Position numbers and translations under genes: made by a program. The notes beneath the pieces are model-generated. The model made no database searches. It was not told the origin of the DNA and worked only from the letters and a program-made list of their open reading frames with translations. From the NCBI GenBank assembly GCA_050012255.1, contig JBEKHN010000018.1, forward strand, positions 1 through 38,974: a stretch of DNA of 38,974 nucleotides. Reading direction: 5' to 3'. The DNA is from Candidatus Bathyarchaeia archaeon. GTDB lineage: Archaea; Thermoproteota; Bathyarchaeia; Bathyarchaeales; Bathycorpusculaceae. Positions within the stretch are counted from its first letter, which is position 1, and the number at the start of each line of letters is the position of its first letter. Below, piece by piece: positions 10,906 to 38,157 of the stretch.

Positions 10906-11180
10906 GCGACAACAATACTTGAATAATTAAGTCTATAGGTCGTGAACCCTGCTTGAGCGTCTGCACGTTAACGATGGGCCAGTAACGGACCTCTCATTCA
11001 GAACTATGGTCTGCCAACAACGTTCTCTGCTTTGCCTTTTCCCTGTGTCAACTTACGCATCAACACTGCTTAACCCCCTGCAAGGTTTGAAGCTTTCATG
11101 TTGGCAATTCTTTTATGAATCAGGACCCTCCGTATTGTTCAGAGCCGAAGACGGTGAGATGTTTCAAGAGGTGATGTTTT

Positions 11181-11354
11181 TTGGCGAGGAAAGTTGTCAA
11201 GGTCTACCTGCCACCTTCACAGAAGAAGGTTCTTGACCGAATGTGCATAAGCCTAGGAATGGCTGAAAGCGAGGCTCTGCGCACCGCATTCTTGGAATAC
11301 GCAAAAAGCCTAGGCTTGATGACTGAACAGATCCGCGGCGACAGACTCAACTAG
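11181..11354 (+). CDS. Small ribbon-helix-helix (CopG-like) DNA-binding protein (57 aa)
   Basis: Manual translation from TTG after a GAGGTGA SD: MARKVVKVYLPPSQKKVLDRMCISLGMAESEALRTAFLEYAKSLGLMTEQIRGDRLN*. Beta strand, helix, then G-x-x-x-S-E-x-x-R-x-A helix. Confidence 0.75.
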   Translation: MARKVVKVYLPPSQKKVLDRMCISLGMAESEALRTAFLEYAKSLGLMTEQIRGDRLN

Positions 11355-11496
11355 CGACAAGCTTGACAGCCTGGGTCTGGCTGATACCCTAGCATGGAGG
11401 GACGGGTGCGTTAGCAGGCTGAACCCGGGGCACTTGAAACCTGAAGACGCCGTTGCGTGGCAGCGCAGTACATGAAAAGCACTGAAGAAGTACTAT

Positions 11497-11673
11497 CCTT
11501 GCCGAAACTCTTCGCCAAACCCTTTGCACAAGCTCAGCTTTAAGTCCTTACAAATCCAGTAGGGCCTTCGCCAGTGCCTATTTGCAGTACTAGTACCCTA
11601 GGGGGGAGGGGGGAGGGTGGAATAGACGGGGTCAAAACGCGAATACAGGGATGTAGCGTTTCTCATCCAGACA
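11497..11673 (+). repeat. Left copy of ~175-bp imperfect inverted repeat (conserved core 11583-11673)
   Basis: Hand alignment to the reverse complement of 14923-15097: core differs by 4 substitutions and 2 G-run indels over 91 nt; outer 86 nt align without gaps at 55/86. Confidence 0.9.
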
Positions 11674-11756
11674 GAGCTCGAATCAGAAACCAGTGCAGGC
11701 TAATCACGCGGTATTCTATTCCAAACGAAAGTTCATTAACAGGTGTTCTGTTTTTG

Positions 11757-12164
11757 ATGCCTATGCGATTCAGAGATCTTACGAAGCTGGATCTTGAACT
11801 TGTCGAGAAAGCAAAGGATTTGATTGGAAAGCGAAAGTCGAAAAGATCGTCTGTTGCAGCTGTCTTGCGGACCAAGAACAACAGGATGTTCTCCGGTGTC
11901 AACATCGAGATAGAGTGTTCTGCTCCATGCTCAATCTGCGCAGAGTATGCAGCGGTCGGAACGATGGTTTCTGAGGGAGAAGAAGAAATTGAGACCATTG
12001 TCGCGTTTGCATACAAGAACGGTGGTCGTGTCCTGCCGCCATGTGGGAAGTGTAGACAGTTCATAAGCGAATTCGGCGACCCGCACGTGATTGTTCAGGT
12101 CGACCGGAAACTCAAGAAAGTCAGACTGAGCGAACTGTACCCGTTGCCCGTGGTCTCTGAGTGA
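11757..12164 (+). CDS. cdd: Cytidine deaminase family protein (CAE/PCGxC type)
   Basis: GVNIE, SICAE and PPCGKCRQ zinc motifs. Start moved to ATG 11757 (or 11763) because the longer ORF runs through the repeat. Confidence 0.8.
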   Translation: MPMRFRDLTKLDLELVEKAKDLIGKRKSKRSSVAAVLRTKNNRMFSGVNIEIECSAPCSICAEYAAVGTMVSEGEEEIETIVAFAYKNGGRVLPPCGKCRQFISEFGDPHVIVQVDRKLKKVRLSELYPLPVVSE

Positions 12165-12946
12165 GTCAGGCAATGAGTCTTTATGACCCGATCGTCAGGC
12201 ATAGAGCCGTAGAGAAACTTGTCACGAGGGGCACTGGTAAGGATCAAGAAAGAAAGTATTGGCGGTTCCGCATTGATCGCTGGTACGGCGGAATAGTGAC
12301 GGCCGACGCAGTGGGGTGTGGTCTCCTCTGCAAGTTTTGCTGGGTCTCAAACCAGATCATGATGAAACCTGCGGAGGTTGGGAAGTATTGTGGCCCTGAA
12401 ACCGTTGCGAACACCCTCGTTAGAATGGCTGGAAAAAAGGCGATTCGACAAATTCGTTTAAGCGGAGGGGAACCCACGATCGGCAGAGACCACCTTCTTC
12501 ATGTTCTGGAAGGCTTGAAGGAGCAGAGCCTACTTTTCATCCTTGAAACCAACGGCATACTGATAGGACAAGACATGAGTTACGCTCATGAACTTTCAGA
12601 ATTCCCGTTTGTTCACGTCCGCGTCTCTCTCAAGGGGTGCAGTGAGGAAGAATTTTCCAGTCTGACGGGGGCAAAGCAGGAAGGCTTTCAGATGCAACTG
12701 AAGGCTCTGCAAAACCTGGTTGCAGAACACGTGCAGTGTCATCCAGCCGTGATGGTTTCGTTTTCTCCAGAAAACAGTCTGCAAAGACTCGTTGAAAGCT
12801 TGCGTGCGATCGATCCGAAACTAGTCGAGGAGCTCGAAACTGAGGAGCTCATCCTGTACCCAAGCGTTCAAACAAAAGTGCGTAGACATGGCCTCAGCTA
12901 CTATCGATCTTACATGCCGAACCGTGTTCCGAAAGAACTCGTCTAG
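12161..12946 (+). CDS. Radical SAM protein (archaeal YGG-x-x-TAD-x-x-GC type)
   Basis: CGLLCKFC (CxxxCxxC), SGGEP and LETNG motifs; GTGA overlap with the deaminase stop. Confidence 0.9.
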   Translation: MSQAMSLYDPIVRHRAVEKLVTRGTGKDQERKYWRFRIDRWYGGIVTADAVGCGLLCKFCWVSNQIMMKPAEVGKYCGPETVANTLVRMAGKKAIRQIRLSGGEPTIGRDHLLHVLEGLKEQSLLFILETNGILIGQDMSYAHELSEFPFVHVRVSLKGCSEEEFSSLTGAKQEGFQMQLKALQNLVAEHVQCHPAVMVSFSPENSLQRLVESLRAIDPKLVEELETEELILYPSVQTKVRRHGLSYYRSYMPNRVPKELV

Positions 12947-13552
12947 CTTTCACCAATGAGGACAAGGTTTCCCGCGTCTTCAGCGGAGTCGCTATCACCT
13001 TTCTCGAGCACTTGACGGTCGAGACAGCTTTGCCTGCGATTCCTCTTTCCTTTTTCTTCTACGCCGAATTAGTTCCACATCCAAAACGAGAATGAATGCT
13101 CCACCGATCCGCACCGACTGCTGTCATCATGCCCAAAACGATAGGCATGGAGATAGTCGACGTCATGAGTCCTTCAATATCTCTATCTTCCAGTTTCTTC
13201 CTTTACAACCGCCAGAATGTTGTCCTCACTGTTCGCGCACATGGCATTCTTGAAAGAATCCTCTATAACTCAGCTCCGTCCAGTCTATCCTTGTGTTGCA
13301 ACCGCTAAACAGTAACATTAGCGCGCGCTGTCCAGTTTTCCCTTTTTCCAAGTTTCAGGTGTGCACGTAGAATTCAGACTTGGCATTCATACAAGCTAAA
13401 TGCAATGACGGAGCCTACTTTCTTATTAACAGTAATAAGGATGTCACTGCAATGGCATCAGACGATGAGCGCGCACGTTGAAGGCCAATGGAGACAGCGT
13501 ATGCGTGAACAGCACGGTCTGTCAAGCGCGAACATGACGGAGGTGAGGCAAC

Positions 13553-14020
13553 TTGAGTGAGCGTGCCCGAATCCTTGTTGTCGACGATGACGAAGGAATA
13601 AGAAGAACGTTGGCGGCCATACTGGAAGACGAAGGCTACGTGGTTGACGCTGTGGAGAGCGGACGAGAAGCCATTGAGAGGTCTGACAGAAGAATCTACA
13701 ACGTGGCTTTGATCGATGTTCGGCTTCTGGACATGGAGGGGACGGAGCTTCTTACCAAGATGAAGGATAGAGTGCCAAGAACGCGGAAGATAATCATCAC
13801 TGGTTACCCAACAGTTCAGAACGCAATGGAGGCTGTTAACAAGAATGCAGACGCGTACTTGTTGAAGCCGTTTGACATAGCTAAGGTTCTCTTCGTTATC
13901 AAAGACCAGCTGCGGAAGCAGGAGGAGGAAGGCAGGTTCAATCAGGAAAGAGTCACGGCGTTCATCGAGACGAGTGTCAGGGAACTTGAGACCAAGACTG
14001 CTGGCAGCAAGCTGAAGTGA
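13553..14020 (+). CDS. Stand-alone response regulator (receiver domain plus short tail)
   Basis: ILVVDDD, LID, ITG and KP motifs; GGAGGTGA SD before TTG. Confidence 0.9.
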   Translation: MSERARILVVDDDEGIRRTLAAILEDEGYVVDAVESGREAIERSDRRIYNVALIDVRLLDMEGTELLTKMKDRVPRTRKIIITGYPTVQNAMEAVNKNADAYLLKPFDIAKVLFVIKDQLRKQEEEGRFNQERVTAFIETSVRELETKTAGSKLK

Positions 14021-14027
14021 AGGCTTT

Positions 14028-14462
14028 CTACTCTTTTCTCAGTCGCCTATGAGTGCTTACCTTTTTCCATTCATCATGTTTCTGCAGGACTTCCTTTGTC
14101 TGAGTGTTTATGAAGTCTTCGACGCTTCGGTACGGCGTGTTCATCTGCCTCAGTGCTTCTTCAAGCATGTCGTACTGTTCTTTGGGCATTTCTATGTATT
14201 CATGTTCTTGTCTTAGCCATGTCAATCGGAATCTTATGGCGTCGCGTATGAACTCTTCCTTCGTCGTGTAGCCTAGGTGCTTGTTCTCTTCTATGAAGCT
14301 CTGTGTCTGTGTGAGCAGCTCTTGGGGGAGTATGACTGACTGGTTTATCAGCGCGTTTATCGCGTCTTGGTACGTCTGCATCTTGCTCGTCTGAGTCATC
14401 AGTTCGCCCATCAGTGCCGTCAGCTTCTGGTGGATGTCCTCTGAAATCTTGAGGGTCTTCAT
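14028..14462 (-). CDS. Protein with three tandem ribbon-helix-helix-like repeats (144 aa)
   Basis: KTLKISEDIH...TYQDAINALI; SVILPQELL...GYTTKEEFIRDAIR; YIEMPKEQY...PYRSVEDFI. Start moved to ATG 14462. Confidence 0.7.
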   Translation of the reverse strand: MKTLKISEDIHQKLTALMGELMTQTSKMQTYQDAINALINQSVILPQELLTQTQSFIEENKHLGYTTKEEFIRDAIRFRLTWLRQEHEYIEMPKEQYDMLEEALRQMNTPYRSVEDFINTQTKEVLQKHDEWKKVSTHRRLRKE

Positions 14463-14538
14463 CTTGTTTTCCCGTTTCGCTTCTTGGTTTGTTGGTGTAT
14501 ATTTTGTTTTTGGTATTATATATGGAGACAGATTTATT

Positions 14539-14556
14539 AAGTATACTAAGTATACC
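14539..14556. promoter_or_regulatory. Tandem 9-bp repeat in a divergent promoter, candidate RHH operator
   Basis: AAGTATACT-AAGTATACC, each with palindromic GTATAC, next to TTTATTAA. Confidence 0.35.
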
Positions 14557-14598
14557 ATATGCTCGCTTTGAGTCGCACAGCTTGACGGGGGATGTCGA

Positions 14599-14838
14599 GT
14601 GCCATTCATCTTCTACTGCAGCCAGTGCGGGTCATTGTTGTACGAGGATTCAAAGCCTCTTTTGCAGGATGGAACGTACAGGCGTCAGACGTACCTTCAG
14701 AGCGTTGTCCTCAAGATTGGAGGCAAGTGTCCGAATTGCGGCCGCAAATTGCATATTCCTCCTTCGAAGGTGGAGGTCTTGGCACCTCAGCTGTCGACAG
14801 CTGTGGAAAGAAAAGGGAAGGTCTTGCTTTCTGAGTGA
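14599..14838 (+). CDS. Small zinc-ribbon protein
   Basis: FYCSQCG...KCPNCGRKL (two CxxC); GGGGGA upstream of GTG. Confidence 0.7.
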   Translation: MPFIFYCSQCGSLLYEDSKPLLQDGTYRRQTYLQSVVLKIGGKCPNCGRKLHIPPSKVEVLAPQLSTAVERKGKVLLSE

Positions 14839-14922
14839 CTGTTTTAGCGGCGTGGTGCGCACTGCGGCGGGGGCGGTGGGTATGCAGCTTGCGGAGCTGG
14901 TGACGGGGTGGGTTTCGCGTCT

Positions 14923-15097
14923 TGTCTGGATGGGAAACACTACATCCCTGTATTCGCGTTTTGACCTCGTCTATTTCACCCTCCCCCTCCCCCTAGGGTA
15001 CTAGTACTGCACGCGGGCGCAGAGAAAGGCCCTTGTGACTTTGCAAGGGCTTGAAGCAAGGTGCGTGAAGAAGATTTGGCTCAGAGTCTGGACAAGG
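14923..15097 (-). repeat. Right copy of ~175-bp imperfect inverted repeat (conserved core 14923-15011)
   Basis: Reverse complement reads TGCAGTACTAGTACCCTAGGGGGAGGGGGAGGGTGAAATAGACGAGGTCAAAACGCGAATACAGGGATGTAG..., matching 11583 onward. Confidence 0.9.
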
Positions 15098-15136
15098 CTT
15101 TGAAAGCGAGCGTGCGCTATTTCTGCCTCTTTCTTA

Positions 15137-16342
15137 TCACATGTTCTCTTTGATCATCTTGGCCAGGCGCTTGATGCCTTCTTCTATCTGCTGCTCTGAC
15201 GGGTATGAGAAGTTTATTCTCATGGTGTTCTGGCCTTTGCCGTTGCAATGAAAAGCCGAGCCTTTTACGTAGACCACTCCATTTTCGACTGCCTTTGGAA
15301 AGAGGTCGTCACTGCTCATTCTCTTCGGAAGTTTGACCCATAGAAACAGTCCGCCTTCCGGCTTGGTCCACGCCACACCCTTCGGCATGTATTTCTGCAA
15401 GGCTTCCAGCATCACCTGACGCTTTCTTGCGTAGAGTCTGCGGATACTCTCAATCTGCTTCGGCAGCAACCCGCGTTTCATGTACTCGGCCGCTATGAGC
15501 TGAGTGAACGTGGGCGAGCAGAGGTCCATGCTCTGTTTGGCGACGACCATCCTGTCCATCCACTCGGCGGGGGCCATTATCCAAGCCAACCTTAGTCCTG
15601 GGCAGAGCAGCTTGGAGAAGGTTCCCAGGACTATGACTTGACTCTCTTTGTCCAAGCTGAAAATGGCTGGAACGCTTTCGCCTGCGAATCTGAGGTCTCT
15701 GTATGGGCTGTCTTCAACGACGGGAAGCTCGTGCTCGTAAGCCAATTCCAAGAGTCTCTTGCGTCTTTCCAAGGACATCGTGACTCCTGAAGGATTCTGA
15801 AAGTCTGGGACAACGTAGATGAATTTTTGTTTCTTGTGCCTCTTTGCCAGTCTGGTCAAAGTTTTTTCCAGAAGGTCCATCCTCATTCCTTGATTGTCTT
15901 GGAGGACACCGACCATCTTGGCTCTGTAGGCTGTGAACGCTTGCAGACCGCCGATGTACGTTGGCAACTCAACTATTACCGTGTCCTTCGGGTCCAGGAA
16001 GACTTTGGAGATGATGTCCAAACCCTGTTGCGACCCTGACGTGACAAGGATGTTTTCGGGTTTGATCCCGGGTTTTTCACGTGAAATCCATTTGGCAATT
16101 TCTTCACGCAGAGCCCATTCTCCCTCGGTGGGTCCATACTGAAGGGCCACGGCTCCTTTTTGCCTCAGTATCTGACAAGCTATGTCTTCCAGGTCTTCGA
16201 CGGGAAAAGTCTCTGGAGCGGGAAGTCCCCCAGCGAAGGAGATCATGTCGGGTCGTCGGGTCACTTTCAGAAGTTCGCGGATCTCAGAACGTTTCATGTT
16301 GAGAGCATTCTTGGAGTAGAAGGCTGAAAGGTCTTTGATCAC
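15137..16342 (-). CDS. PLP-dependent class I/II aminotransferase (LysN/ARO8-like)
   Basis: ISFAGGLP, LQYG, GSQQ, FQNPSG, EDSPY and GTFSK-x-x-x-PGLR motifs. Confidence 0.92.
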   Translation of the reverse strand: MIKDLSAFYSKNALNMKRSEIRELLKVTRRPDMISFAGGLPAPETFPVEDLEDIACQILRQKGAVALQYGPTEGEWALREEIAKWISREKPGIKPENILVTSGSQQGLDIISKVFLDPKDTVIVELPTYIGGLQAFTAYRAKMVGVLQDNQGMRMDLLEKTLTRLAKRHKKQKFIYVVPDFQNPSGVTMSLERRKRLLELAYEHELPVVEDSPYRDLRFAGESVPAIFSLDKESQVIVLGTFSKLLCPGLRLAWIMAPAEWMDRMVVAKQSMDLCSPTFTQLIAAEYMKRGLLPKQIESIRRLYARKRQVMLEALQKYMPKGVAWTKPEGGLFLWVKLPKRMSSDDLFPKAVENGVVYVKGSAFHCNGKGQNTMRINFSYPSEQQIEEGIKRLAKMIKENM

Positions 16343-23609: not shown

Positions 23610-24329
23610 TTGTCACAAAACCCCAACCTTTTTCTTTCCCTTGGAAAGCAAGTTAAAGACGAGTACGGATGTACAATAGGAAAGATTGCATCCTTCGCTG
23701 TCACCCCAAGTGGGAAATTTGACTCCGTCTTTATCGAACTTGGCGACGGAAGAATCTCGAAACACTCTTCTGAGCTCCTCAAGTTGGAGGGTGCTAACGT
23801 AACTCTAACATCTAACATAAAGGCTCAAGCAGCTATCCTGTGCGATCAAATCCCCCTCATTTGGCGCAAAGATCAAGCCCTCAAAGACTTGTCGGAAAAG
23901 AAGAAGATCTCCAAGGAGATGTACACTGAGCTGCACACCAGCTTCGACGGCGTGCTAGCCCAGCTTAAGACCGAAGCCCAAGCTCTCACGGAGGACATAG
24001 ACAATGAAATTGCAAGGTGCCTTGACGAAACGAAGGCCCTGAACTACGCATTCGTGCACCTCGAACTCGAACATGAGATAGGAAAATTGGACAACCAATC
24101 CTATGAGACCGCCTTCGCAATAGTTCAGGAAAGCCTCAAGAGAGTCCACATGGAGAAGACCGACCTAGACCTCACAAGGAGCAAGCTCTCAAACATTCTC
24201 TTAGGTGATCAAGCCAAAAACAAGGGGATCGAAGGGTTGAAAGCAGGGAGTTCTGCTTCATCCTCTCCAGGGCTTCCAGAGCCGCCTGTAGTAGTCTACG
24301 TGAAGGAAATCGGAAAGACTGGCATATAG
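23610..24329 (+). CDS. cdvA: CdvA-like cell division protein
   Basis: PRC-barrel start (GKQVKDEYG-x-x-IGKI), coiled coil, and C-terminal beta motif PVVVYV; located before cdvB and cdvC. Confidence 0.85.
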   Translation: MSQNPNLFLSLGKQVKDEYGCTIGKIASFAVTPSGKFDSVFIELGDGRISKHSSELLKLEGANVTLTSNIKAQAAILCDQIPLIWRKDQALKDLSEKKKISKEMYTELHTSFDGVLAQLKTEAQALTEDIDNEIARCLDETKALNYAFVHLELEHEIGKLDNQSYETAFAIVQESLKRVHMEKTDLDLTRSKLSNILLGDQAKNKGIEGLKAGSSASSSPGLPEPPVVVYVKEIGKTGI

Positions 24330-24365
24330 AATCGAAACAGGAAAGCGGCGGCGGAGGGAGAGCTC

Positions 24366-25265
24366 ATCAAAAGTTTCATTCGTTCGCACCCTCCACCCTT
24401 TCGCGAAACCGTTCAAAAGTCCGTTCAGACCTTGAGAATTGAGCAGGGTAAGCTCGGGCTAGCAGCTCACAGACTCAAAAACAGGCACGATTTTCTCTTC
24501 CAAACATGCGTCAGCGCGTTGAGAAACAAGAACAGGGAAAGAGCCGCAATATGTGCAAACGAGATTTCTGAAGTCCGAAAAATCCTGCAATTTCTCCACA
24601 GCGTAGAGCTGGCAATAGAACGTGTAGTTTTGAGGCTTGAAACCGTAAAAGAGCTAAGCGAGATCGTCGTCGACCTGAAACCCGCTTTGAGACTCCTCCA
24701 AAGTGTCTCGCAGGAGCTGATTTCGGTTCTTCCCGACGTTTCGTCTGAACTGTGCAAGGTCAACGATACTATTAGCGAGACGCTCTACTCGACCAAGATA
24801 AATGCCGATGAATCTGTGATACCCGTGAATTGGAAAACACCTGGCGGTCAAGAGATACTCAATGAAGTCTCGGGTTATCTTGAGAAGAAACTCGCTGAGG
24901 ATCTTCCAGAACCGCCCGCCGCTCAGAAAATCGCAGATGCTGAGAAAACCACGATAAAACAGATGGTGGCAATAGCTTCTGGCATAACAGAATCAGCAGG
25001 CAGGAAATCCGTTGAGGAATCCGGAAGAGATTCTTCTCAAACCCTCTTTTCTTATAAGAAAGCCGAGATTAAGGAAATCTCCTTAACGGTTGAAAATTCA
25101 CAACTAGAAGACATTCTTCTAGATTATGTCAAGAAGACCAACGGACAGATCGACTTGGCACGTTGCTCAGTTGATTTGGAAACCTCAAATGAGGAGATCG
25201 AAAAGGCCCTTCATAATCTAGGGTCTAAGGGGAAAATAAAGATCGAACTGAAAAATGGAGAGTAG
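24366..25265 (+). CDS. cdvB: ESCRT-III CdvB with C-terminal winged-helix; start uncertain (ATC 24366 or TTG 24432)
   Basis: ANEISEVRK, AIERVVLRLETVKEL, LPEPP and wH tail (LLDYVKK...EIEKAL-x-x-L-x-x-KGKI). Similarity to the paralog extends upstream of 24432. Confidence 0.85.
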   Translation: MKSFIRSHPPPFRETVQKSVQTLRIEQGKLGLAAHRLKNRHDFLFQTCVSALRNKNRERAAICANEISEVRKILQFLHSVELAIERVVLRLETVKELSEIVVDLKPALRLLQSVSQELISVLPDVSSELCKVNDTISETLYSTKINADESVIPVNWKTPGGQEILNEVSGYLEKKLAEDLPEPPAAQKIADAEKTTIKQMVAIASGITESAGRKSVEESGRDSSQTLFSYKKAEIKEISLTVENSQLEDILLDYVKKTNGQIDLARCSVDLETSNEEIEKALHNLGSKGKIKIELKNGE

Positions 25266-25270
25266 AAGGT

Positions 25271-26452
25271 ATGAGCGCTTCACAAGAGCTTGAGAAAGAT
25301 GCAACCAACTACGCGTTGGAAGCGGTACGATTGGACAAGCAAGGGTCCAAAGGCATGGCAATAACCATGTACCAGAAGGCCATAGAAAGCCTCTTGCAGC
25401 TTGTCCAGCTATATCCTGAGTACAGCCTGAACAAGGTCTACGTGCAAAGAGCAATAGCGTATCAAGAGCGGATCAAGGCTATTCAAGGCGCCGTAATCAC
25501 TTTTCGGGAACAACAACCTCACGTTGAAGCGAGAAACGCCGACGTTGAAGGCGAACCTAAGAGCAGTGAGGGCGGCAAATCCAGCTACGAGGAGTTGATA
25601 ATAACAGAGAAGCCTAACGTCAAATGGGACCAAGTTGTTGGACTTGACCCGGCAAAGAAGGCAGTGAAGGAAGCAATAATCTACCCAGTTGAGAGGCCAG
25701 ACCTGTTCCCACTAGGCTGGCCACGGGGAATACTGCTCTTCGGACCACCTGGTTGCGGAAAAACACTGATTGCAGCAGCCGTCGCGACAGAAATAGACGC
25801 AACCTTCGTTTCAATAGATGCAGCTTCGATAATGTCGAAATGGTTAGGAGAGGCTGAACAGAACGTTGCGCGTCTCTTTGGTCAAGTGAGAAAATCAGCA
25901 GTGGAAGGTAAACCCGCTATAGTTTTCGTCGATGAATTGGATTCGTTGATGGGAAAACATTCAAACGAGGTTGGAGGTGAGATTCGCGTTCGAAACCAGT
26001 TCTTGAAAGAGATGGACGGGATAGTGGACAAAGGCAAGGCCCTTCACGTGTACGTTATTGGAGCAACAAACAAGCCATGGGATTTGGACTGGGCTTTCAT
26101 AAGGAGGTTCCAGAAAAGGATCTTGGTGCCTCTGCCAGATCACCACACGAGGTTGATGATGTTCAATCTGTACACCACTAATCTGCAGTTGGCGCCTGAC
26201 GTTGACCTGCATGAGCTCGCAAGACTTTCAGAAGGCTTCTCAGGAAGCGACATAAGAGACGTTAACCAGTCGGCACAGCTGAAACTCATAGGTGAATTCT
26301 TCGAGTCAGGAAAGGCAAGCGATAAAATGGCGAAGCCGCGACCCTTGACAATGGATGATTTCAAACAGATACTTGAAGACAGAAAACCCAGCGTATCCCT
26401 CGACATGGTCGCCTTGTACACGCGATGGTTTGAAGCCTTCAAGGCCCTCTAG
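25271..26452 (+). CDS. cdvC: Vps4-like AAA+ ATPase CdvC
   Basis: N-terminal MIT domain, GPPGCGKT, VFVDELD, ATNKPW and RRFQKR motifs. Confidence 0.95.
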   Translation: MSASQELEKDATNYALEAVRLDKQGSKGMAITMYQKAIESLLQLVQLYPEYSLNKVYVQRAIAYQERIKAIQGAVITFREQQPHVEARNADVEGEPKSSEGGKSSYEELIITEKPNVKWDQVVGLDPAKKAVKEAIIYPVERPDLFPLGWPRGILLFGPPGCGKTLIAAAVATEIDATFVSIDAASIMSKWLGEAEQNVARLFGQVRKSAVEGKPAIVFVDELDSLMGKHSNEVGGEIRVRNQFLKEMDGIVDKGKALHVYVIGATNKPWDLDWAFIRRFQKRILVPLPDHHTRLMMFNLYTTNLQLAPDVDLHELARLSEGFSGSDIRDVNQSAQLKLIGEFFESGKASDKMAKPRPLTMDDFKQILEDRKPSVSLDMVALYTRWFEAFKAL

Positions 26453-32601: not shown

Positions 32602-32794
32602 ACGCGTTCACTCTGCATCCATCTTTTGTAGAGAAGAACCAGTGCACGCAATAGCATCTATGTTGCTGCTGCGACTTGAAGGCATTGTCGATGTTTTATT
32701 GGGAAATCAGTTAGGCTAAATAACCCGTTGATGCACTGAGACTACTTCTAGAGCCGAAAAGATGTTGCCGCAGAAAATCGAGCAGGAACGTGAA

Positions 32795-33202
32795 ATGAGG
32801 AACGAGGCAAGACTCTCCGTTACGTTGCTGACAGGGCGAACGATTGAACAGGGCGTTGGCAAGGAGCGTGGAAAAGCTTCAAAGGAGTACGCCGAAAGTG
32901 TTACTGTCTGTTTCATAGACCCGCAGGACATGAAGAAACTCAAGGTCAAAGAAGGAGCCAACGTGGAAGTGTCAACGAGCCACGGTTCTGTCGTTTTGAA
33001 GTCCGTGAAATCCAGAAGAGGACCTCATCCTGGCATAGTTTTTGTTCCCTACGGCCCGTGGGCAAACGTCATCGTTGATTCAGGGACAGACAGCATCGGA
33101 ATGCCCTCTCTGAAAGGAATCCCAGCCGAAATAGAGTCCACCCCTGAAAAACCAGTACTAGATTTACCCCAACTTCTTGCGCAGCTCTTCGGGAATGAGT
33201 GA
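32795..33202 (+). CDS. fwdD: Formylmethanofuran dehydrogenase subunit D
   Basis: LLTGRTIEQG, VPYGPWAN and GMPSLKG motifs. Alternative start 32762. Confidence 0.9.
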   Translation: MRNEARLSVTLLTGRTIEQGVGKERGKASKEYAESVTVCFIDPQDMKKLKVKEGANVEVSTSHGSVVLKSVKSRRGPHPGIVFVPYGPWANVIVDSGTDSIGMPSLKGIPAEIESTPEKPVLDLPQLLAQLFGNE

Positions 33203-33203
33203 C

Positions 33204-34658
33204 ATGCCAGTCGTCAAAGCGGTGACCTGTCCGATCTGCGGATGTCTCTGCGACGACATAGAGCTAACAATCAAAGACAGAGCGATCGTCAAGGTAAAAA
33301 ACGGCTGCTCAATGTGCGAGTCGAAATTCTTCGGCTACACCGGACATAGAATATTGAAACCTTTGATCAAAAGGAACGGGCAACTGGTTCAAGTCTCTCC
33401 CAAAGAAGCTGTAACAGCCGCAGCTGAAATATTGGCCGAAGCAAGTTATCCACTGCTTTACGGTTGGAGCTCCACAAGCTGCCAGGCCATCCGCGTGGGT
33501 CTCGAGTTGGCCGAAGAAGTAGGCGGAATAATCGACAACACTTCAACAATCTGCCACGGCCCGTCTGCCTTAAGCATCCAAGACGTTGGATTGCCATCGT
33601 GCACGCTTGGACAGATAAGGCACCGGGCTGATCTGGTGATATATTGGGGAAGCAACCCCTGGAGTGCTCACCCGAGACACATTGAAAGGTACACGGCCTT
33701 TTCAGAAGGAAGGTTTGAGAAGAGCGAATGGGAAGGATACCTGAAAAAAACGAAGGCTGCGACAGCCAAGAAGAAGGTTGAAAGCGCTCTAAGAAGAGTC
33801 AAAGCAGAAGAAACAAAACCTTTCCAGTCACCTCCCGTGGGAGCGCCATGCCCAGCTATCTTGAAAGGAGGCAGAAAACTCGTAGTCGTGGACGTCAGGA
33901 GGACCAGAACCGCTGAGAATGCTGACTACTTTATCCAAGTTGAGCCGAACAAGGACTACGAGCTTTTCGAAGCTCTCAGAGCCTTGATTCGAGACGAAGA
34001 GCTTGAGGTTGACGAGGTTGCAGGAGTGCCTGTGGAATACTTGGAAGAAGTGGCAGACGCGATGATAGGATGCAATTTCGGCGTGATTTTCTTCGGGCTT
34101 GGGCTTACTATGAGCAAGGGAAAACTGCGAAACGTCGACGCAGCTCTTTCTTTGACCAGAGACTTGAACATGCGCACGAAATTTATGATACTGCCGATGC
34201 GAGGGCATTTCAACGTTACAGGTGCGGACACGGTCTTCACTTGGCAGACCGGTTACCCATACGCCGTTGATTTTTCAATGGGCTACCCGAGATATAACCC
34301 GGGAGAAACATCAGCCGTAGACGTACTCTTGCGAAAAGAAACAGACGCAGCGCTGGTGGTGGCTTCTGACCCTGTCTCAAACTTTCCCAGAACTGCCGCG
34401 GAACATTTGGTTAAGAATCCGTTGATCGTTATAGACCCGCACATGAATGTAACAGCCCAGATGGGCGACGTGGTTTTTCCCTCAGCTTTCGTTGGAATAG
34501 AGACAAGTGGAACAGCATACCGCATGGATCACGTGCCTCTTTCACTCAAAAAAATCGTTGACCCGCCAAGAGGAGTCCTTTCTGACGAAGTGATTTTGAA
34601 GAGGATCCTCGCTGAGGTTAGACGGATAAGAAAGAAAAAGCGAAGGGAGGCACGGTAG
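33204..34658 (+). CDS. fwdB: Formylmethanofuran dehydrogenase subunit B
   Basis: CPICGCLCDD, ICHGP (Cys ligand), WGSNP-x-x-AHPRH, PMRGHFNV and GTAYRMD motifs. Alternative start 33195. Confidence 0.95.
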   Translation: MPVVKAVTCPICGCLCDDIELTIKDRAIVKVKNGCSMCESKFFGYTGHRILKPLIKRNGQLVQVSPKEAVTAAAEILAEASYPLLYGWSSTSCQAIRVGLELAEEVGGIIDNTSTICHGPSALSIQDVGLPSCTLGQIRHRADLVIYWGSNPWSAHPRHIERYTAFSEGRFEKSEWEGYLKKTKAATAKKKVESALRRVKAEETKPFQSPPVGAPCPAILKGGRKLVVVDVRRTRTAENADYFIQVEPNKDYELFEALRALIRDEELEVDEVAGVPVEYLEEVADAMIGCNFGVIFFGLGLTMSKGKLRNVDAALSLTRDLNMRTKFMILPMRGHFNVTGADTVFTWQTGYPYAVDFSMGYPRYNPGETSAVDVLLRKETDAALVVASDPVSNFPRTAAEHLVKNPLIVIDPHMNVTAQMGDVVFPSAFVGIETSGTAYRMDHVPLSLKKIVDPPRGVLSDEVILKRILAEVRRIRKKKRREAR

Positions 34659-36350
34659 ATGGAGCTTCTGATAAAAAACGGCTTTGTCTACGACCCAATT
34701 AACGGCATAAACGGCGAAAAGATGGACATTGCCGTAAGGGATGGAAAAATAGTTGAAAACGTGAATGAACGCAAGGCTAGGAAGCTCAACGCTTCTGGAA
34801 TGATAGTCATGCCGGGAGGCGTTGACATCCACTGTCACGTTGCCGGGTCAGAGGTCAACTCTGGGAGGCTCTTGAGGCCCGAAGATCACTTCAAAGATTT
34901 TGAAGTGAAGACATCAATAACAAGGTCCGGAGTCGGCCGCTCGATTCCGTCCACTTTCACGACTGGCTACCGGTACTCTAGGATGGGTTACACGACGATA
35001 ATGAACCCTTCTATGCCTCCGTTGGAAGCGAAGCACACGCATGAGGAGTTAAGCGACACGCCTATGGTCGACAAGGCTTCTTATCCGCTCCTCGGCGACT
35101 GGTGGTTCGTGCTCGAGTATCTGGCGCAAGGAAACATCGAAGAGTGCGCAAGGCATGTGGCGTGGCTGATGGACTCAACCAAGGGATACGCGATAAAAAT
35201 AGTCAACCCAGGCGGGCTGGAGGCTTGGGGATTCGGCCACAACATCAAAAGCCTCGACGACCAGGTTCCGCATTTCTGCACCACCCCACGCGAGATCATC
35301 AGAGGCCTCTGTAGGGTAAACAAGCTCTTGGCGCTGCCCCACACAATTCACGTCCACACAAACAACCTCGGAAAACCAGCAAACTATCTCACGGCGTTAG
35401 AAACCATGAAGTGTGTTGAAGACCTGGCCCTTGAAAACAAGCCTGTAATCCACATAACACACTGCCAGTTCAGCGCCTTCAAGGGCGACGACTGGACAAC
35501 ACTCGAATCCGGTGCGGAGGACATTGCAAAATACGTTAACGGCCACTCTCACGTCACGATGGACATGGGCCAAGTCATATTCACAGACACGACGACTATG
35601 ACGGCCGACGGCCCATTCCAGTACGACCTCTACGGCCTTACAGGCAACAAGTGGGTAAACCATGATGTTGAAACGGAAACAAGCGCGGGCATCGTTCCCT
35701 TCCGTTACCGCCGCAAAAGTTACGTTCACGCAACTCAATGGTCAATAGGCTTAGAGCTGGCCTTGCTGATTAAGGATCCTTGGAAAATATTCATGACCAC
35801 GGACCATCCGAACGGCGGACCATTCACAGCGTATCCGAAGATCATAGCTTGGCTCATGAGTGAAAAAGCAAGGAAGGCAACGATGAAAAGGATTAACAGG
35901 CGGGCGAGGAGCAGAAGTCTCCTTCCCTCAATAGACCGTGAGCTAAACTTCTACGAGATCGCAGTCATGACGAGGGCCGGACAATCCAGGGCGTTGGGTC
36001 TTAAGGACAAGGGGCATTTGGGCGTGGGAGCAGACGCTGACCTGGCAATCTATGCTGTGAACCCTGAAACAGCCGATCCATCGAGAAAGTACAAGAGCGT
36101 AAGAAGAGCGTTCAAGAGAGTAGCATACACGATCAAAGGCGGAAAAATAGTCGTCAAGAATGGAGAGATAGTGAGACACGCTGATGGCGCTACGATGTGG
36201 CTTGATGTTCACGTGTCTGAACCCGTCAAGTTGACCGATGACATGAAGAAAAGGTTCAAGGAATACTGGACGGTTGAGTATGAGAATTATTCTGTCGGTG
36301 AAGAGTACCTTAAGGCTTCAAGGCCGATCGCTGTGAAGGCTAGTGTTTAG
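34659..36350 (+). CDS. fwdA: Formylmethanofuran dehydrogenase subunit A
   Basis: GGVDIHCH, KIVNPGG, HVHTNNLG, HCQF and TTDHPNGGP motifs. Confidence 0.96.
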   Translation: MELLIKNGFVYDPINGINGEKMDIAVRDGKIVENVNERKARKLNASGMIVMPGGVDIHCHVAGSEVNSGRLLRPEDHFKDFEVKTSITRSGVGRSIPSTFTTGYRYSRMGYTTIMNPSMPPLEAKHTHEELSDTPMVDKASYPLLGDWWFVLEYLAQGNIEECARHVAWLMDSTKGYAIKIVNPGGLEAWGFGHNIKSLDDQVPHFCTTPREIIRGLCRVNKLLALPHTIHVHTNNLGKPANYLTALETMKCVEDLALENKPVIHITHCQFSAFKGDDWTTLESGAEDIAKYVNGHSHVTMDMGQVIFTDTTTMTADGPFQYDLYGLTGNKWVNHDVETETSAGIVPFRYRRKSYVHATQWSIGLELALLIKDPWKIFMTTDHPNGGPFTAYPKIIAWLMSEKARKATMKRINRRARSRSLLPSIDRELNFYEIAVMTRAGQSRALGLKDKGHLGVGADADLAIYAVNPETADPSRKYKSVRRAFKRVAYTIKGGKIVVKNGEIVRHADGATMWLDVHVSEPVKLTDDMKKRFKEYWTVEYENYSVGEEYLKASRPIAVKASV

Positions 36351-37175
36351 ATGATAAGGCTCCGACCAGCGAGAGAATTCAGGTTTCCAGTAATTGCCGA
36401 GTGTATAAACCCGGATGTTCTTGAAGGCAAGAGCGCTGGCGAAATTGGAGAGTTGAAGATCTGGGAAGGGAACAGACAGAAGAAACTGCGTGAAATTTTC
36501 AGAATTGACGAGGTCAGAGACGAGAGTACGCCGGAAAGTGTTGCCATTGCAATCCATGGGGACGTTAGCAAAGTTCGAAGAATTGGGTCATTCATGAAAA
36601 GCGGAGAAATCGTGATTAACGGGGATGCTGGCATGCACTTGGGTGAAGAAATGAAGGGAGGCAAAATAACTGTTCATGGAAACGTCGGGGCTTGGCTTGG
36701 TTCAATGATGACTGGTGGCTCTATCGAGGTTCATGGAAACGCGAGCGACTATGTCGGCGCACCTTACCGTGGAAGCACCAAGGGCATGCATGGGGGTAGG
36801 ATGACCGTTTATGGAAACGTGGGAAACGAAGTTGGAGCGTGGATGAAAAAGGGCACGATTAAAGTGTACGGAAGTGCAGGCCAATTCGTCGGCTTTCGCA
36901 TGCGTGATGGTACGATCTATGTTCAAAACGACTGCGAAGAAAGGGCTGGCGCATGCATGACGGATGGAAAGATCGTTGCAGGTGGCTGTCTACGGTCCGT
37001 TTTGCCCAGCTTCACGATAGACAGCGTTAAACCAAGAGTCAAGATTGAAGAAAACGAAACGGTTGAAGGGCCCTTCTATCTTTTTTTGGGAGACCTTGCC
37101 GAAGGTGGAAAAGGCAAACTCTATGTCTTCAAGGACAAGAACCCACATCTGACCTGTTATGAGAAGTTACTCTGA
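36351..37175 (+). CDS. fwdC: Formylmethanofuran dehydrogenase subunit C
   Basis: Repeated G-x-x-M-x-x-G beta-helix units; GAPYRGS-x-x-GM. Confidence 0.95.
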   Translation: MIRLRPAREFRFPVIAECINPDVLEGKSAGEIGELKIWEGNRQKKLREIFRIDEVRDESTPESVAIAIHGDVSKVRRIGSFMKSGEIVINGDAGMHLGEEMKGGKITVHGNVGAWLGSMMTGGSIEVHGNASDYVGAPYRGSTKGMHGGRMTVYGNVGNEVGAWMKKGTIKVYGSAGQFVGFRMRDGTIYVQNDCEERAGACMTDGKIVAGGCLRSVLPSFTIDSVKPRVKIEENETVEGPFYLFLGDLAEGGKGKLYVFKDKNPHLTCYEKLL

Positions 37176-37188
37176 GGAGAAGTATCCT

Positions 37189-38157
37189 TTGAAAAACGCT
37201 TTAAGTGTAAATCGCTTGGCTTGGAGGCTTCTGGAAGAACTGGTCAAAAGTCCAGACTTCTACGGCGTCAAAGTGGAAAGGATGAGTAAGGGGACGACAA
37301 TCGTAGATGCGGGCGTACAGGCAAGAGGCGGCTTTGAAGCTGGCAGACTCATCACGGAGATCTGCATGGGAGGCCTCGGAAAAGCCCAAATATGCTCCAA
37401 AGAATACGGCGACTTGGAACTTCAGTCAATATTCGTTTACACTGACCACCCGGCAATCGCGACTCTAGGCTCGCAGTACGCTGGTTGGCAGATAAGCGAG
37501 GAAGGATGCTTCGCAATAGGCTCTGGACCAGCAAGAGCATTGGCTTTGAAACCGAAAGAAGTCTACGAAGAGATCCAGTACAAAGACGAGTGCGACAAGG
37601 CCGTTGTCGTCTTGGAAACCCAGAAATTTCCACCGCCGAAATTAATAGACCGTTTTGCAAGAGACTGCAGAGTATCACCAGAGAATGTGGCAGTAATTCT
37701 TACCCCAACAACCAGCCTGGCCGGAGCAACTCAAGTTTCAGGAAGAATCGTTGAAACGGGAGTACACAAACTAAGAAGGCTAGGGCTGAACCCCAACACA
37801 ATTCTCTACGCCTGGGGATATGCACCCATCCCGCCAGTGCATCCAAAGTTCGCTGACGCGATGGCCCGAACAAATGATGCAATTCTCTACGGCGGCACAT
37901 CCTGCTATGTTCTTGAGTATGATGATGAAGAAAAACTCAGCGAGATAGTGAAGAAGGCTCCCTCGAAGGCGTCCAAGGCTTACGGGAAGCCTTTCATAGA
38001 AATATTCAAGGAAGCCAAGTATGACTTCTACAAGATAGATCAGAACCTTTTTGCCCCTGCTATCATAATGGTCAACAATCGGAAGACAGGTCGCACTTTC
38101 AAAGCTGGAGAAATAAACAAAGAGGTTCTAGAAACCTCCTTGGGCATTAAGGCATAA
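37189..38157 (+). CDS. mch: Methenyltetrahydromethanopterin cyclohydrolase
   Basis: LSVN, ICMGGL, LGSQYAGW, GSGPARALA, GRIVETG, RTNDAILYGG and DFYKID motifs. TTG 37189 follows GAGGAG. Confidence 0.95.
   Translation: MKNALSVNRLAWRLLEELVKSPDFYGVKVERMSKGTTIVDAGVQARGGFEAGRLITEICMGGLGKAQICSKEYGDLELQSIFVYTDHPAIATLGSQYAGWQISEEGCFAIGSGPARALALKPKEVYEEIQYKDECDKAVVVLETQKFPPPKLIDRFARDCRVSPENVAVILTPTTSLAGATQVSGRIVETGVHKLRRLGLNPNTILYAWGYAPIPPVHPKFADAMARTNDAILYGGTSCYVLEYDDEEKLSEIVKKAPSKASKAYGKPFIEIFKEAKYDFYKIDQNLFAPAIIMVNNRKTGRTFKAGEINKEVLETSLGIKA

Follow-up and report, generated by a model that had tools for sequence, protein, structure and literature searches.

Inverted arms in a Bathyarchaeia contig as probable copies of a dispersed, non-coding intergenic repeat

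Bathyarchaeia are abundant and largely uncultured archaea, and to our knowledge the non-coding content of their genomes is almost undescribed. The subject here is a pair of inverted arms, 11497-11673 and 14923-15097, in a 38,974-nt window from a Candidatus Bathyarchaeia archaeon (positions 1 to 38,974 of contig JBEKHN010000018.1, assembly GCA_050012255.1), which had been predicted to bracket a 3.6-kb gene cassette. Several described systems come close to such an arrangement. Invertons are invertible segments bounded by inverted repeats with a recombinase adjacent, while the ERIC, REP/BIME and CIR repeats are dispersed, strictly intergenic and present in tens of copies, with conserved palindromes and no transposase of their own. 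The ends and derivatives of IS200/IS605 insertion sequences (IS), together with the TnpB omega-RNA scaffolds, have neither terminal inverted repeats nor target duplications, and show a sharp 3′ end after a small hairpin and a scaffold beside locus-specific sequence; propagated (‘mobile’) promoters are homologous intergenic DNA found upstream of unrelated genes. [quoted passage not shown] The same review gives flanking direct repeats (at least in young copies), AT-richness and a stably folding transcript as MITE features, and names CIR (Caulobacter) and ERIC (PMC10969869).

We consider it likely that the two arms are not the ends of a cassette but two resident members of a lineage-specific repeat family, non-coding and dispersed in the intergenic DNA of Bathyarchaeia. 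The two copies would by chance lie ∼3.2-3.3 kb apart in opposite orientation, and the genes between them would be ordinary chromosomal genes and not cargo. The 3.2-kb segment would then be flanked by recombinogenic inverted homology and could flip, which is the only mechanistic consequence supported for the window.

The inverted arms and a dispersed repeat family

A repeat search listed the arms as 11497-11611/14983-15097 (71%) and 11603-11682/14914-14993 (88%), and blastn of either arm against the whole window returned the other arm as the sole match (78.5% over 177 nt, E 1e-37), all remaining matches in the window being ≤27 nt (≤17 nt for the left arm) with E ≥0.8. Global alignment of the left and right arms yielded 139 identical residues among 175 aligned positions plus 2 gap columns, with 55/86 identical (64%) in the outer 86 nt and 84/89 (94%) in the inner part, where a 2-nt indel inside a G-run argues against coding. 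The better-conserved end of each arm points to the interior on both sides; both this inward polarity and the identities agree with the original prediction, which had put the inner and outer parts at ∼93% and 64%. Comparison with other family members extended the left copy ∼115 nt further out than first placed, to ∼11380, the alignment of 22 copies putting the start of conservation ∼20 nt before the nhmmer match. The likeness between the arms runs ∼14 nt past the common 3′ end of the family because both arms have the same subfamily tail, which the left copy has in common with the right one up to 11673. The right copy starts ∼33 nt past the stop of the aminotransferase gene, and the two cores are 95.7% identical.

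The 185,579 species genomes scanned with the exact 20 bases of the core (window 11634-11653) contained 24 loci: 16 in OY970176.1, a complete 2.35-Mb Bathyarchaeota chromosome (5 on the plus and 11 on the minus strand), four on two contigs of JBEKOM01, a Bathyarchaeia metagenome-assembled genome (MAG), and four in bacteria-labelled records. A family profile built from aligned copies supported 21 of the 24 loci and both window copies, all with E 5e-29 or better, while L006, L008 and L017 from bacterial records, where the profile match spans only 21-29 nt, were discarded as chance matches. L018 (DASPPK010000076.1 4004-8023), labelled as a Candidatus Acidiferrales bacterium MAG, is 89-93% identical to L005 across the whole 4 kb and thus belongs to the same lineage, so that contig DASPPK010000076.1 is probably mis-binned archaeal DNA. 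In total 23 true copies were analysed (21 loci and the two window copies); the alignments A2 and A4 have 22 rows with L018 left out, and the later per-copy analyses cover all 23. The 21 further copies rule out a local duplication as the whole explanation, and their orientation relative to neighbouring genes is mixed. A protein search with a spurious open reading frame (ORF) running antisense across the core returned just three metagenome proteins and carries little information on distribution.

The copies show no sign of coding. Column entropies by codon position (0.84/0.85/0.78) lack three-base periodicity, none of the six frames is notably more open than the others, and in several copies the frame is broken by 1-nt indels; the forward frame of ∼46 codons seen in many of them follows from their conservation. 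Neither tRNA nor tmRNA genes were detected, Rfam 15 gave no match in the window at gathering score, and at E up to 10 none lay over the repeat in window 11300-15300 or in 17 loci. The phage and plasmid collections searched with blastn gave no match, and full-text literature searches, covering their result listings and one review, returned no description of such a repeat in Bathyarchaeia. The part of the original prediction that proposed a dispersed non-coding element outside the described ones is therefore borne out, with at least 16 copies in OY970176.1, and by these literature searches and Rfam the dispersed repeat family is previously undescribed.

All 23 copies lie between ORFs, bar short overlaps with gene ends. 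As counted with ORFs from a greedy ORF caller, the next ORF past the core end is convergent in 11/22 copies, co-directional in 10/22 and unclear in 1/22, and on the 5′ side the next ORF is divergent in 12/22 and co-directional in 10/22. Pfam analysis of 101 flanking ORFs, taken within 2 kb on each side of 20 Bathyarchaeia loci, identified no transposase, TnpB or IscB and a single, weakly matching tyrosine recombinase. The neighbours are housekeeping genes, among them those of aldehyde:ferredoxin oxidoreductase, RuBisCO, eIF-2B, MCM, the PolD small subunit, fumarase, Sua5, dihydroorotate dehydrogenase and ETF. At L020 (JBEKOM010000001.1 313686-317705) the copy has a C-terminal fragment of Cdc6 and the gene for the small subunit of PolD as neighbours, and so lies close to what is likely a region of replication origin; no other copy shows this association.

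The unit is asymmetric and 170-290 nt long, with profile matches of 95-260 nt among the 23 copies, and is GC-richer than its surroundings (AT fraction mostly 0.23-0.50 inside vs 0.50-0.60 outside). In all copies the likeness between paralogues ends ∼10-25 nt past a fixed point, which corresponds to window 11659 in the left and 14937 in the right arm. Upstream from this 3′ end come a core of ∼75 nt and then a more variable ∼100 nt, and 14/23 copies have an additional stretch of ∼90-100 nt further upstream; seven shorter copies begin at profile positions 25-49, the window right arm is likewise short, and the 5′-shortened L018 retains only the last ∼95 nt. Pairwise identity averages 69.9% over the 5′ part and 91.4% over the core, the latter value falling to 87.8% once the 20 searched columns are set aside. 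The core contains an 8-bp palindrome, CCCTAGGG, in 23/23 copies, a 10-bp palindrome, GTACTAGTAC, perfect in 13/23, a G-run of varying length and an invariant AATAGA hexamer, and its end forms a small invariant hairpin, which has a GGGA loop and includes an invariant ATG-TAG. AATAGA lies 30 nt ahead of the invariant ATG, which is directly followed by TAG (window 11621-11656 and 14940-14975); this arrangement could be due to chance or could be what is left of a leaderless gene start. The CTAG-centred palindromes are not explained by CTAG avoidance, CTAG being not notably rare (observed/expected 0.85), and a G-quadruplex in the G-run was rejected as well, its fourth G-tract missing in 9/22 copies and part of the run in 3/22.

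Past the core, the first 8-12 nt fall into subfamilies common to unrelated loci. Three tandem 13-nt units with a TATA-like centre were observed ∼40-95 nt past the core end at the unrelated loci L003 and L024, and the same triple module is also translated in the three metagenome ‘hypothetical proteins’ (P0002-P0004) that read across the core antisense. At L009, the orthologous locus, unrelated sequence replaces the triple module, so that a variable module seems to be exchanged beside the core.

Divergence, gene conversion and inversion

Between orthologues, represented by the window left copy and L022, identity reaches 94% in the flanks and 80-87% in the remaining intergenic DNA, whereas the repeat itself is 70% identical over the 5′ part and 88% over the core. 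Two more orthologous pairs have 5′ parts that are 80-83% identical and cores that are 94-96% identical. For paralogues the respective averages are 70% and 91%, so that they are ∼1.5 times as diverged as orthologues in both parts, which fits a spread shortly before the species split followed by residence at fixed sites; we infer that the expansion was a burst, closely followed by the separation of these species. The core changes ∼3 times more slowly than the 5′ part and about as slowly as flanking coding DNA. The sampling by an exact word is not the cause of this conservation, because of copies as diverged as the 5′ part fewer than 1 in 1,000 would retain an intact 20-mer. These rates are best understood if purifying selection, aided by gene conversion, has kept the core, which would then probably be a target of sequence-specific recognition. 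In at least four related genomes the resident copies have a core as tightly conserved as coding DNA.

Four loci could be compared between genomes (WL/L022, L009/L024, L005/L018, and L012 with L002/L014), and a copy was present on both sides at all four; every fetched locus had been picked for holding the repeat, so this comparison could not reveal an empty site.

Several patterns indicate gene conversion among the copies: L005 and L023, two paralogues, match at 100% over the 98 columns of their 5′ part and differ in the core and further upstream, L022 is closest to its paralogue L003 (83.5%) and not to its orthologue (74.2%), and core variants are common to loci and species in a mosaic pattern. 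A recombinant copy was identified at L012 of OY970176.1, which has the upstream flank and 5′ part of L002 and then, from a point inside the core onwards, L014's core variant and downstream flank. These two loci, L002 and L014, form an inverted pair 10.6 kb apart on one contig (JBEKOM010000009.1), and the only arrangement that fits the mosaic is an inversion of the intervening segment with a crossover within the core. As read from these sequences, then, a 10.6-kb segment is inverted between the two genomes by recombination within the core; the reciprocal copy expected in OY970176.1 is not among the loci and may lack the exact word. Ordinary homologous recombination would explain this inversion, so a dedicated enzyme is not needed. 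A second rearrangement at L009/L024/L016 was not counted: L024 has the downstream flank of L009 and ∼540 nt of weaker upstream likeness to L016, and its whole repeat is L009-like, so it is not a simple repeat-to-repeat crossover. Gene conversion and at least one chromosomal inversion have thus had the repeat as their substrate, and it could be used in practice as a marker of synteny breaks and mis-binned contigs in the clade.

The window is ∼90% identical to OY970176.1 around L022 over 11108-13212 and 13735-14036 (megablast), so it comes from a sister species; the interior is collinear with L022 up to window 14036 and not inverted there, two interior genes compared with L022 are ∼94% identical, and no compositional island was found between the arms, the interior GC (0.48-0.51) being like that of the flanks.

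A number of observations weigh against the arms being two incidentally paired repeat copies. The comparison with L022 reaches window 14036 and stops short of the right arm. All pairs of copies <20 kb apart (4/4) are oriented plus then minus, with their cores facing inward, which could mean that the pairing is not incidental; the chance of four inward pairs is 1/16 if close direct pairs are lost by deletion, so the pattern is suggestive only. The sister genome encodes a 415-aa tyrosine recombinase ∼280 nt from the left copy, in divergent orientation. Moreover, each locus had to contain the exact 20-mer, so that degenerate copies are invisible, the count of copies is a minimum, and the 20 columns fixed by the search word exaggerate how well the core is conserved.

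Candidate functions and rival explanations

Our guess at the function of the unit ranks a small RNA first, a promoter or operator acting at the DNA level second and a selfish relic third. The leading guess, a tentative one, is that the unit is, or yields, a small non-coding RNA on the drawn strand, in which a variable 5′ part is followed by a constant 3′ domain, the core, that binds a common protein. This would agree with the roughly threefold better preservation of the core than of the 5′ part at resident orthologous copies, the independence of the units from neighbouring gene orientation, and the invariant terminal hairpin with its GGGA loop. Within the unit, a variable tract that faces the G-run remains rich in pyrimidines, most of the predicted base pairs vary on a single side and yet remain paired (91% of 954 cells versus 38-48% with slid partners), and an upstream box pairs more strongly with the 12 nt that follow the core than with shuffled tails (−6.9 versus −5.2 kcal/mol). 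However, pairing was retained in 91.0% of cells versus 90.9% after shuffling, with 3 versus 2.3 double-change pairs, and the core varies so little that it cannot show covariation. Fold energies of the 23 copies were not below those of shuffled sequences (mean z +0.59 and +0.26 on the two strands), neither a promoter nor an oligo-T terminator occurs at a consistent position, and the Rfam searches at E up to 10 gave no match in the window region or the 17 loci. A copy's own tail and the tail of another copy pair equally well with the box (p 0.96), without covariation. A stem between the upstream box and the tail was accordingly rejected, as it shows no copy-specific covariation and the test against the wider G-rich region was not significant (p 0.08); hairpins in the mid-region were rejected too, single-sequence folds disagreeing among copies.

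A somewhat more doubtful possibility is an operator with a promoter-like module that fires outward from the sharp end and produces sense leaders or antisense transcripts depending on the locus. The two core palindromes, one in all 23 copies and the other perfect in 13, would suit an operator, and the conservation ends just beyond the invariant ATG. AATAGA resembles the TATAGA/TATAAG hexamers, which are 10-14 fold enriched upstream of genes in these sequences, and its 30-nt spacing from ATG equals the hexamer-to-start spacing (27-33 nt) at 6/65 gene upstream regions (8/32 hexamer matches); yet it is without the first T of the enriched hexamers, and the spacing was noticed post hoc. The tandem TATA-like module after the core in L003, L024 and the three metagenome ORFs points the same way. 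Against a promoter, the next gene is convergent and 0-330 nt away in 11/22 copies, leaving nothing obvious to drive, the invariant ATG stands directly before TAG, and ∼75 conserved bases exceed what a promoter needs. A scan for sigma-70 promoters and terminators found nothing above shuffled sequences, with a model unsuited to archaea. Should the core prove to be an RNA or a protein-binding site, it would define a new lineage-specific regulon or ribonucleoprotein.

An unlikely but still appreciable third option is a selfish, non-autonomous element, MITE-like or derived from IS200/IS605, with no host function and a transposase encoded elsewhere. Such a relic is what most repeats of this kind turn out to be, and the copies, multicopy, <500 bp and intergenic, are in this respect like the prokaryotic MITEs described in PMC10969869. 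Subfamilies of the 5′ part suggest a copying history, the copies decay (at the site orthologous to L005, L018 holds only the last ∼95 nt), and 16 copies are present in OY970176.1 versus four found in JBEKOM01. The terminal features of an element are absent, however. Between the two terminal 30-nt stretches of a copy, the longest exact inverted match averaged 4.2 nt versus 4.1 nt after shuffling (max 7, 23 copies), so no terminal inverted repeats were found, and the longest common word of the 15-nt flanks averaged 3.1 nt versus 3.3 nt (max 6), so no target duplications were seen either, with the approximate 5′ boundary weakening the latter test. No transposase was among the 101 flanking ORFs. 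AT-richness and a stable transcript fold are lacking as well, the unit being GC-richer than its flanks and its mean fold z values positive, and the IS pattern of best-conserved outer tips is reversed here, the outer parts being the least conserved (64%). A copy sits on both sides at all four comparable loci, which were selected for holding the repeat, and a core preserved three times better than the remainder of the unit is not what a dead element would show. A guide-RNA scaffold of TnpB or IscB was rejected, with neither gene among the flanking ORFs, and with tails that are common to unrelated loci in place of a locus-specific guide after the core. If the unit is nonetheless selfish, it would represent a kind of repeat that lacks both the terminal repeats and the target duplications usually seen.

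It seems improbable that the core is the recognition module of a dedicated trans-acting system, a tyrosine recombinase like that beside the left copy in the sister genome or an RNA-binding effector, with inward pairs (4/4 of those <20 kb apart) marking chromosomal segments that are flipped or regulated as a programme; if true, it would create a genome-wide network of invertible or co-regulated segments from one repeat.

Least probable of all is a mobile or invertible cassette of 3.6 kb that ends in the two arms and whose inward cores a trans-acting enzyme would recognise to move or flip the genes: the arms are indeed inverted with their conserved ends towards the interior, the same layout recurs in 4/4 pairs <20 kb apart, one such pair is inverted between genomes with its crossover in the core, and the sister genome's recombinase, with R, HxxR and Y motifs, lies close to the left copy, but 12/16 OY970176.1 copies are solitary (no other copy within 58 kb, and only two neighbour distances <20 kb, 12.4 and 16.3 kb), the interior to 14036 is collinear with the sister genome at 94% and uninverted, its GC is that of the flanks, a recombinase neighbours only 1/21 loci and is found nowhere among the 50 window ORFs scanned, and ∼75 nt at 96% identity suffices for ordinary homologous recombination. 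The scan covered 47 of 85 ORFs ≥90 aa plus three shorter ones and gave no transposase or integrase family match, as the original prediction had held, and none of the 7 interior ORFs scanned encodes the transposase that an IS or composite transposon would carry inside its arms. The capture of cargo by paired copies, as proposed in that prediction, is contradicted by the solitary copies of mixed orientation, scattered without cargo variability, and by the absence of a compositional anomaly. Its suggestion of cargo inversion survives in part: it holds for the JBEKOM010000009.1 pair and finds no support at the window locus, which is collinear as far as 14036, and a trans-acting enzyme is not needed for it. 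The repeat is thus best regarded as dispersed and resident, as set out at the beginning.

Window genes and likeness to known systems

The features of the locus and of the inward-facing pairs are collected in the table below. The CopG-type gene upstream of the left copy, too short to pass a 60-aa ORF filter, is 93.8% identical in the sister genome. NCBIfam cytidine deaminase models match the interior deaminase-family gene below their cut-offs, and no NCBIfam model matches the radical SAM gene at its cut-off. Window 13212-13735, which lies just ahead of the response regulator gene and reaches into its start, spans ∼520 bp versus ∼115 bp in the sister genome; a 51-aa frame at 13405-13560 with a weak HisKA_3 match (E 0.02) suggests a histidine kinase remnant and hence a decaying two-component pair. 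The 193-aa ORF is the first of >100 aa downstream of the right copy, 327 nt from its core. Synteny with the sister genome breaks at window 11108, where the window has a YdjM-family membrane protein gene and where, just past the end of similarity, the 415-aa tyrosine recombinase gene of the sister genome begins; this looks like an insertion or deletion bearing an integrase, ∼280 nt from the left copy. Elsewhere in the window, at 23610-26452 and 32762-38157, were observed CdvA-like and Vps4-like (AAA plus MIT domain) cell-division genes and a cluster that encodes molybdopterin oxidoreductase domains together with a GXGXG protein, an amidohydrolase and a methenyl-tetrahydromethanopterin cyclohydrolase, both being ordinary chromosomal content for this archaeal group.

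Table 1. Repeat copies, inward-facing pairs and neighbouring genes (window positions unless another record is named)
Feature	Position	Strand	Basis
Left repeat copy, long form: fast-evolving 5′ part, 3′ core, short subfamily tail	11380..11673	+	nhmmer family profile 11399-11660, E 2.7e-64
Left core	11583..11659	+	invariant columns of 22-row alignment A2
Right repeat copy, short form	14923..15104	-	nhmmer short profile 15104-14936, E 1.2e-49; alignment
Right core	14937..15011	-	same A2 columns as left core
Inward-facing pair	window 11.6/14.9 kb, ∼3.2-3.3 kb apart	+ then -	
Inward-facing pair	JBEKOM010000009.1 9.9/20.5 kb, 10.6 kb apart	+ then -	
Inward-facing pair	OY970176.1 362/378 kb	+ then -	
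Inward-facing pair	OY970176.1 970/982 kb	+ then -	
Small ribbon-helix-helix (CopG-type) gene, flank upstream of left copy, outside repeat	11181..11354	+	Pfam RHH_1, E 1.8e-4, 21.7 bits vs cut-off 20.5
Cytidine deaminase family gene, interior	11757..12164	+	Pfam dCMP_cyt_deam_1, E 1.1e-12; 94.1% identical to L022
Radical SAM enzyme, subfamily unassigned, interior	12161..12946	+	Pfam Radical_SAM 1.8e-12, Fer4_12 4.3e-6; 94.0% identical to L022
∼600-nt stretch without convincing gene	12947..13552	.	overlaps start of 13212-13735 indel
Single-domain response regulator, interior	13553..14020	+	Pfam Response_reg, E 2e-24
193-aa protein, no family above threshold, interior	14028..14609	-	sub-threshold RHH_1 0.075, NikR-type 7.7e-4
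Class I/II aminotransferase, right flank	15137..16342	-	Pfam Aminotran_1_2, E 7.4e-47
Tyrosine recombinase	L022:2564-3811	+	Pfam Phage_integrase 1.3e-6; R, HxxR, Y motifs visible

Compared with the MITEs of PMC10969869, the repeat is likewise short and non-coding, with size variants that include 5′-shortened copies. It differs in having no terminal inverted repeats or direct repeats, in being neither AT-rich nor stably folded, and in a conservation that is one-sided, in the 3′ core, and not at both tips. As in invertons, inverted repeats flank a few kilobases, an inversion has occurred at another pair, and a tyrosine recombinase lies beside the left copy in the sister genome; unlike invertons, the repeat is genome-wide and mostly solitary, and the window locus is collinear between the two genomes across the left junction and the interior, with no second orientation seen in that comparison and no recombinase found among the window ORFs scanned. 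With IS200/IS605 ends the repeat has in common the lack of terminal inverted repeats and target duplications and the sharp 3′ end after a small hairpin, whereas no TnpA, TnpB or IscB gene lies nearby at the 20 loci, the sequence after the core is not a locus-derived guide, and Rfam gives no match. Mobile promoters are similar in that the same conserved block stands upstream of unrelated genes (10/22) and conservation ends near a possible transcription start, while half of the repeat copies face the 3′ end of a convergent gene. ERIC, REP/BIME and CIR are bacterial and built on one dominant palindrome or hairpin, whereas the present repeat is archaeal and asymmetric, its 8-10 bp palindromes forming a small part of the core; like them, it is dispersed, intergenic and palindrome-bearing, and has no transposase of its own.

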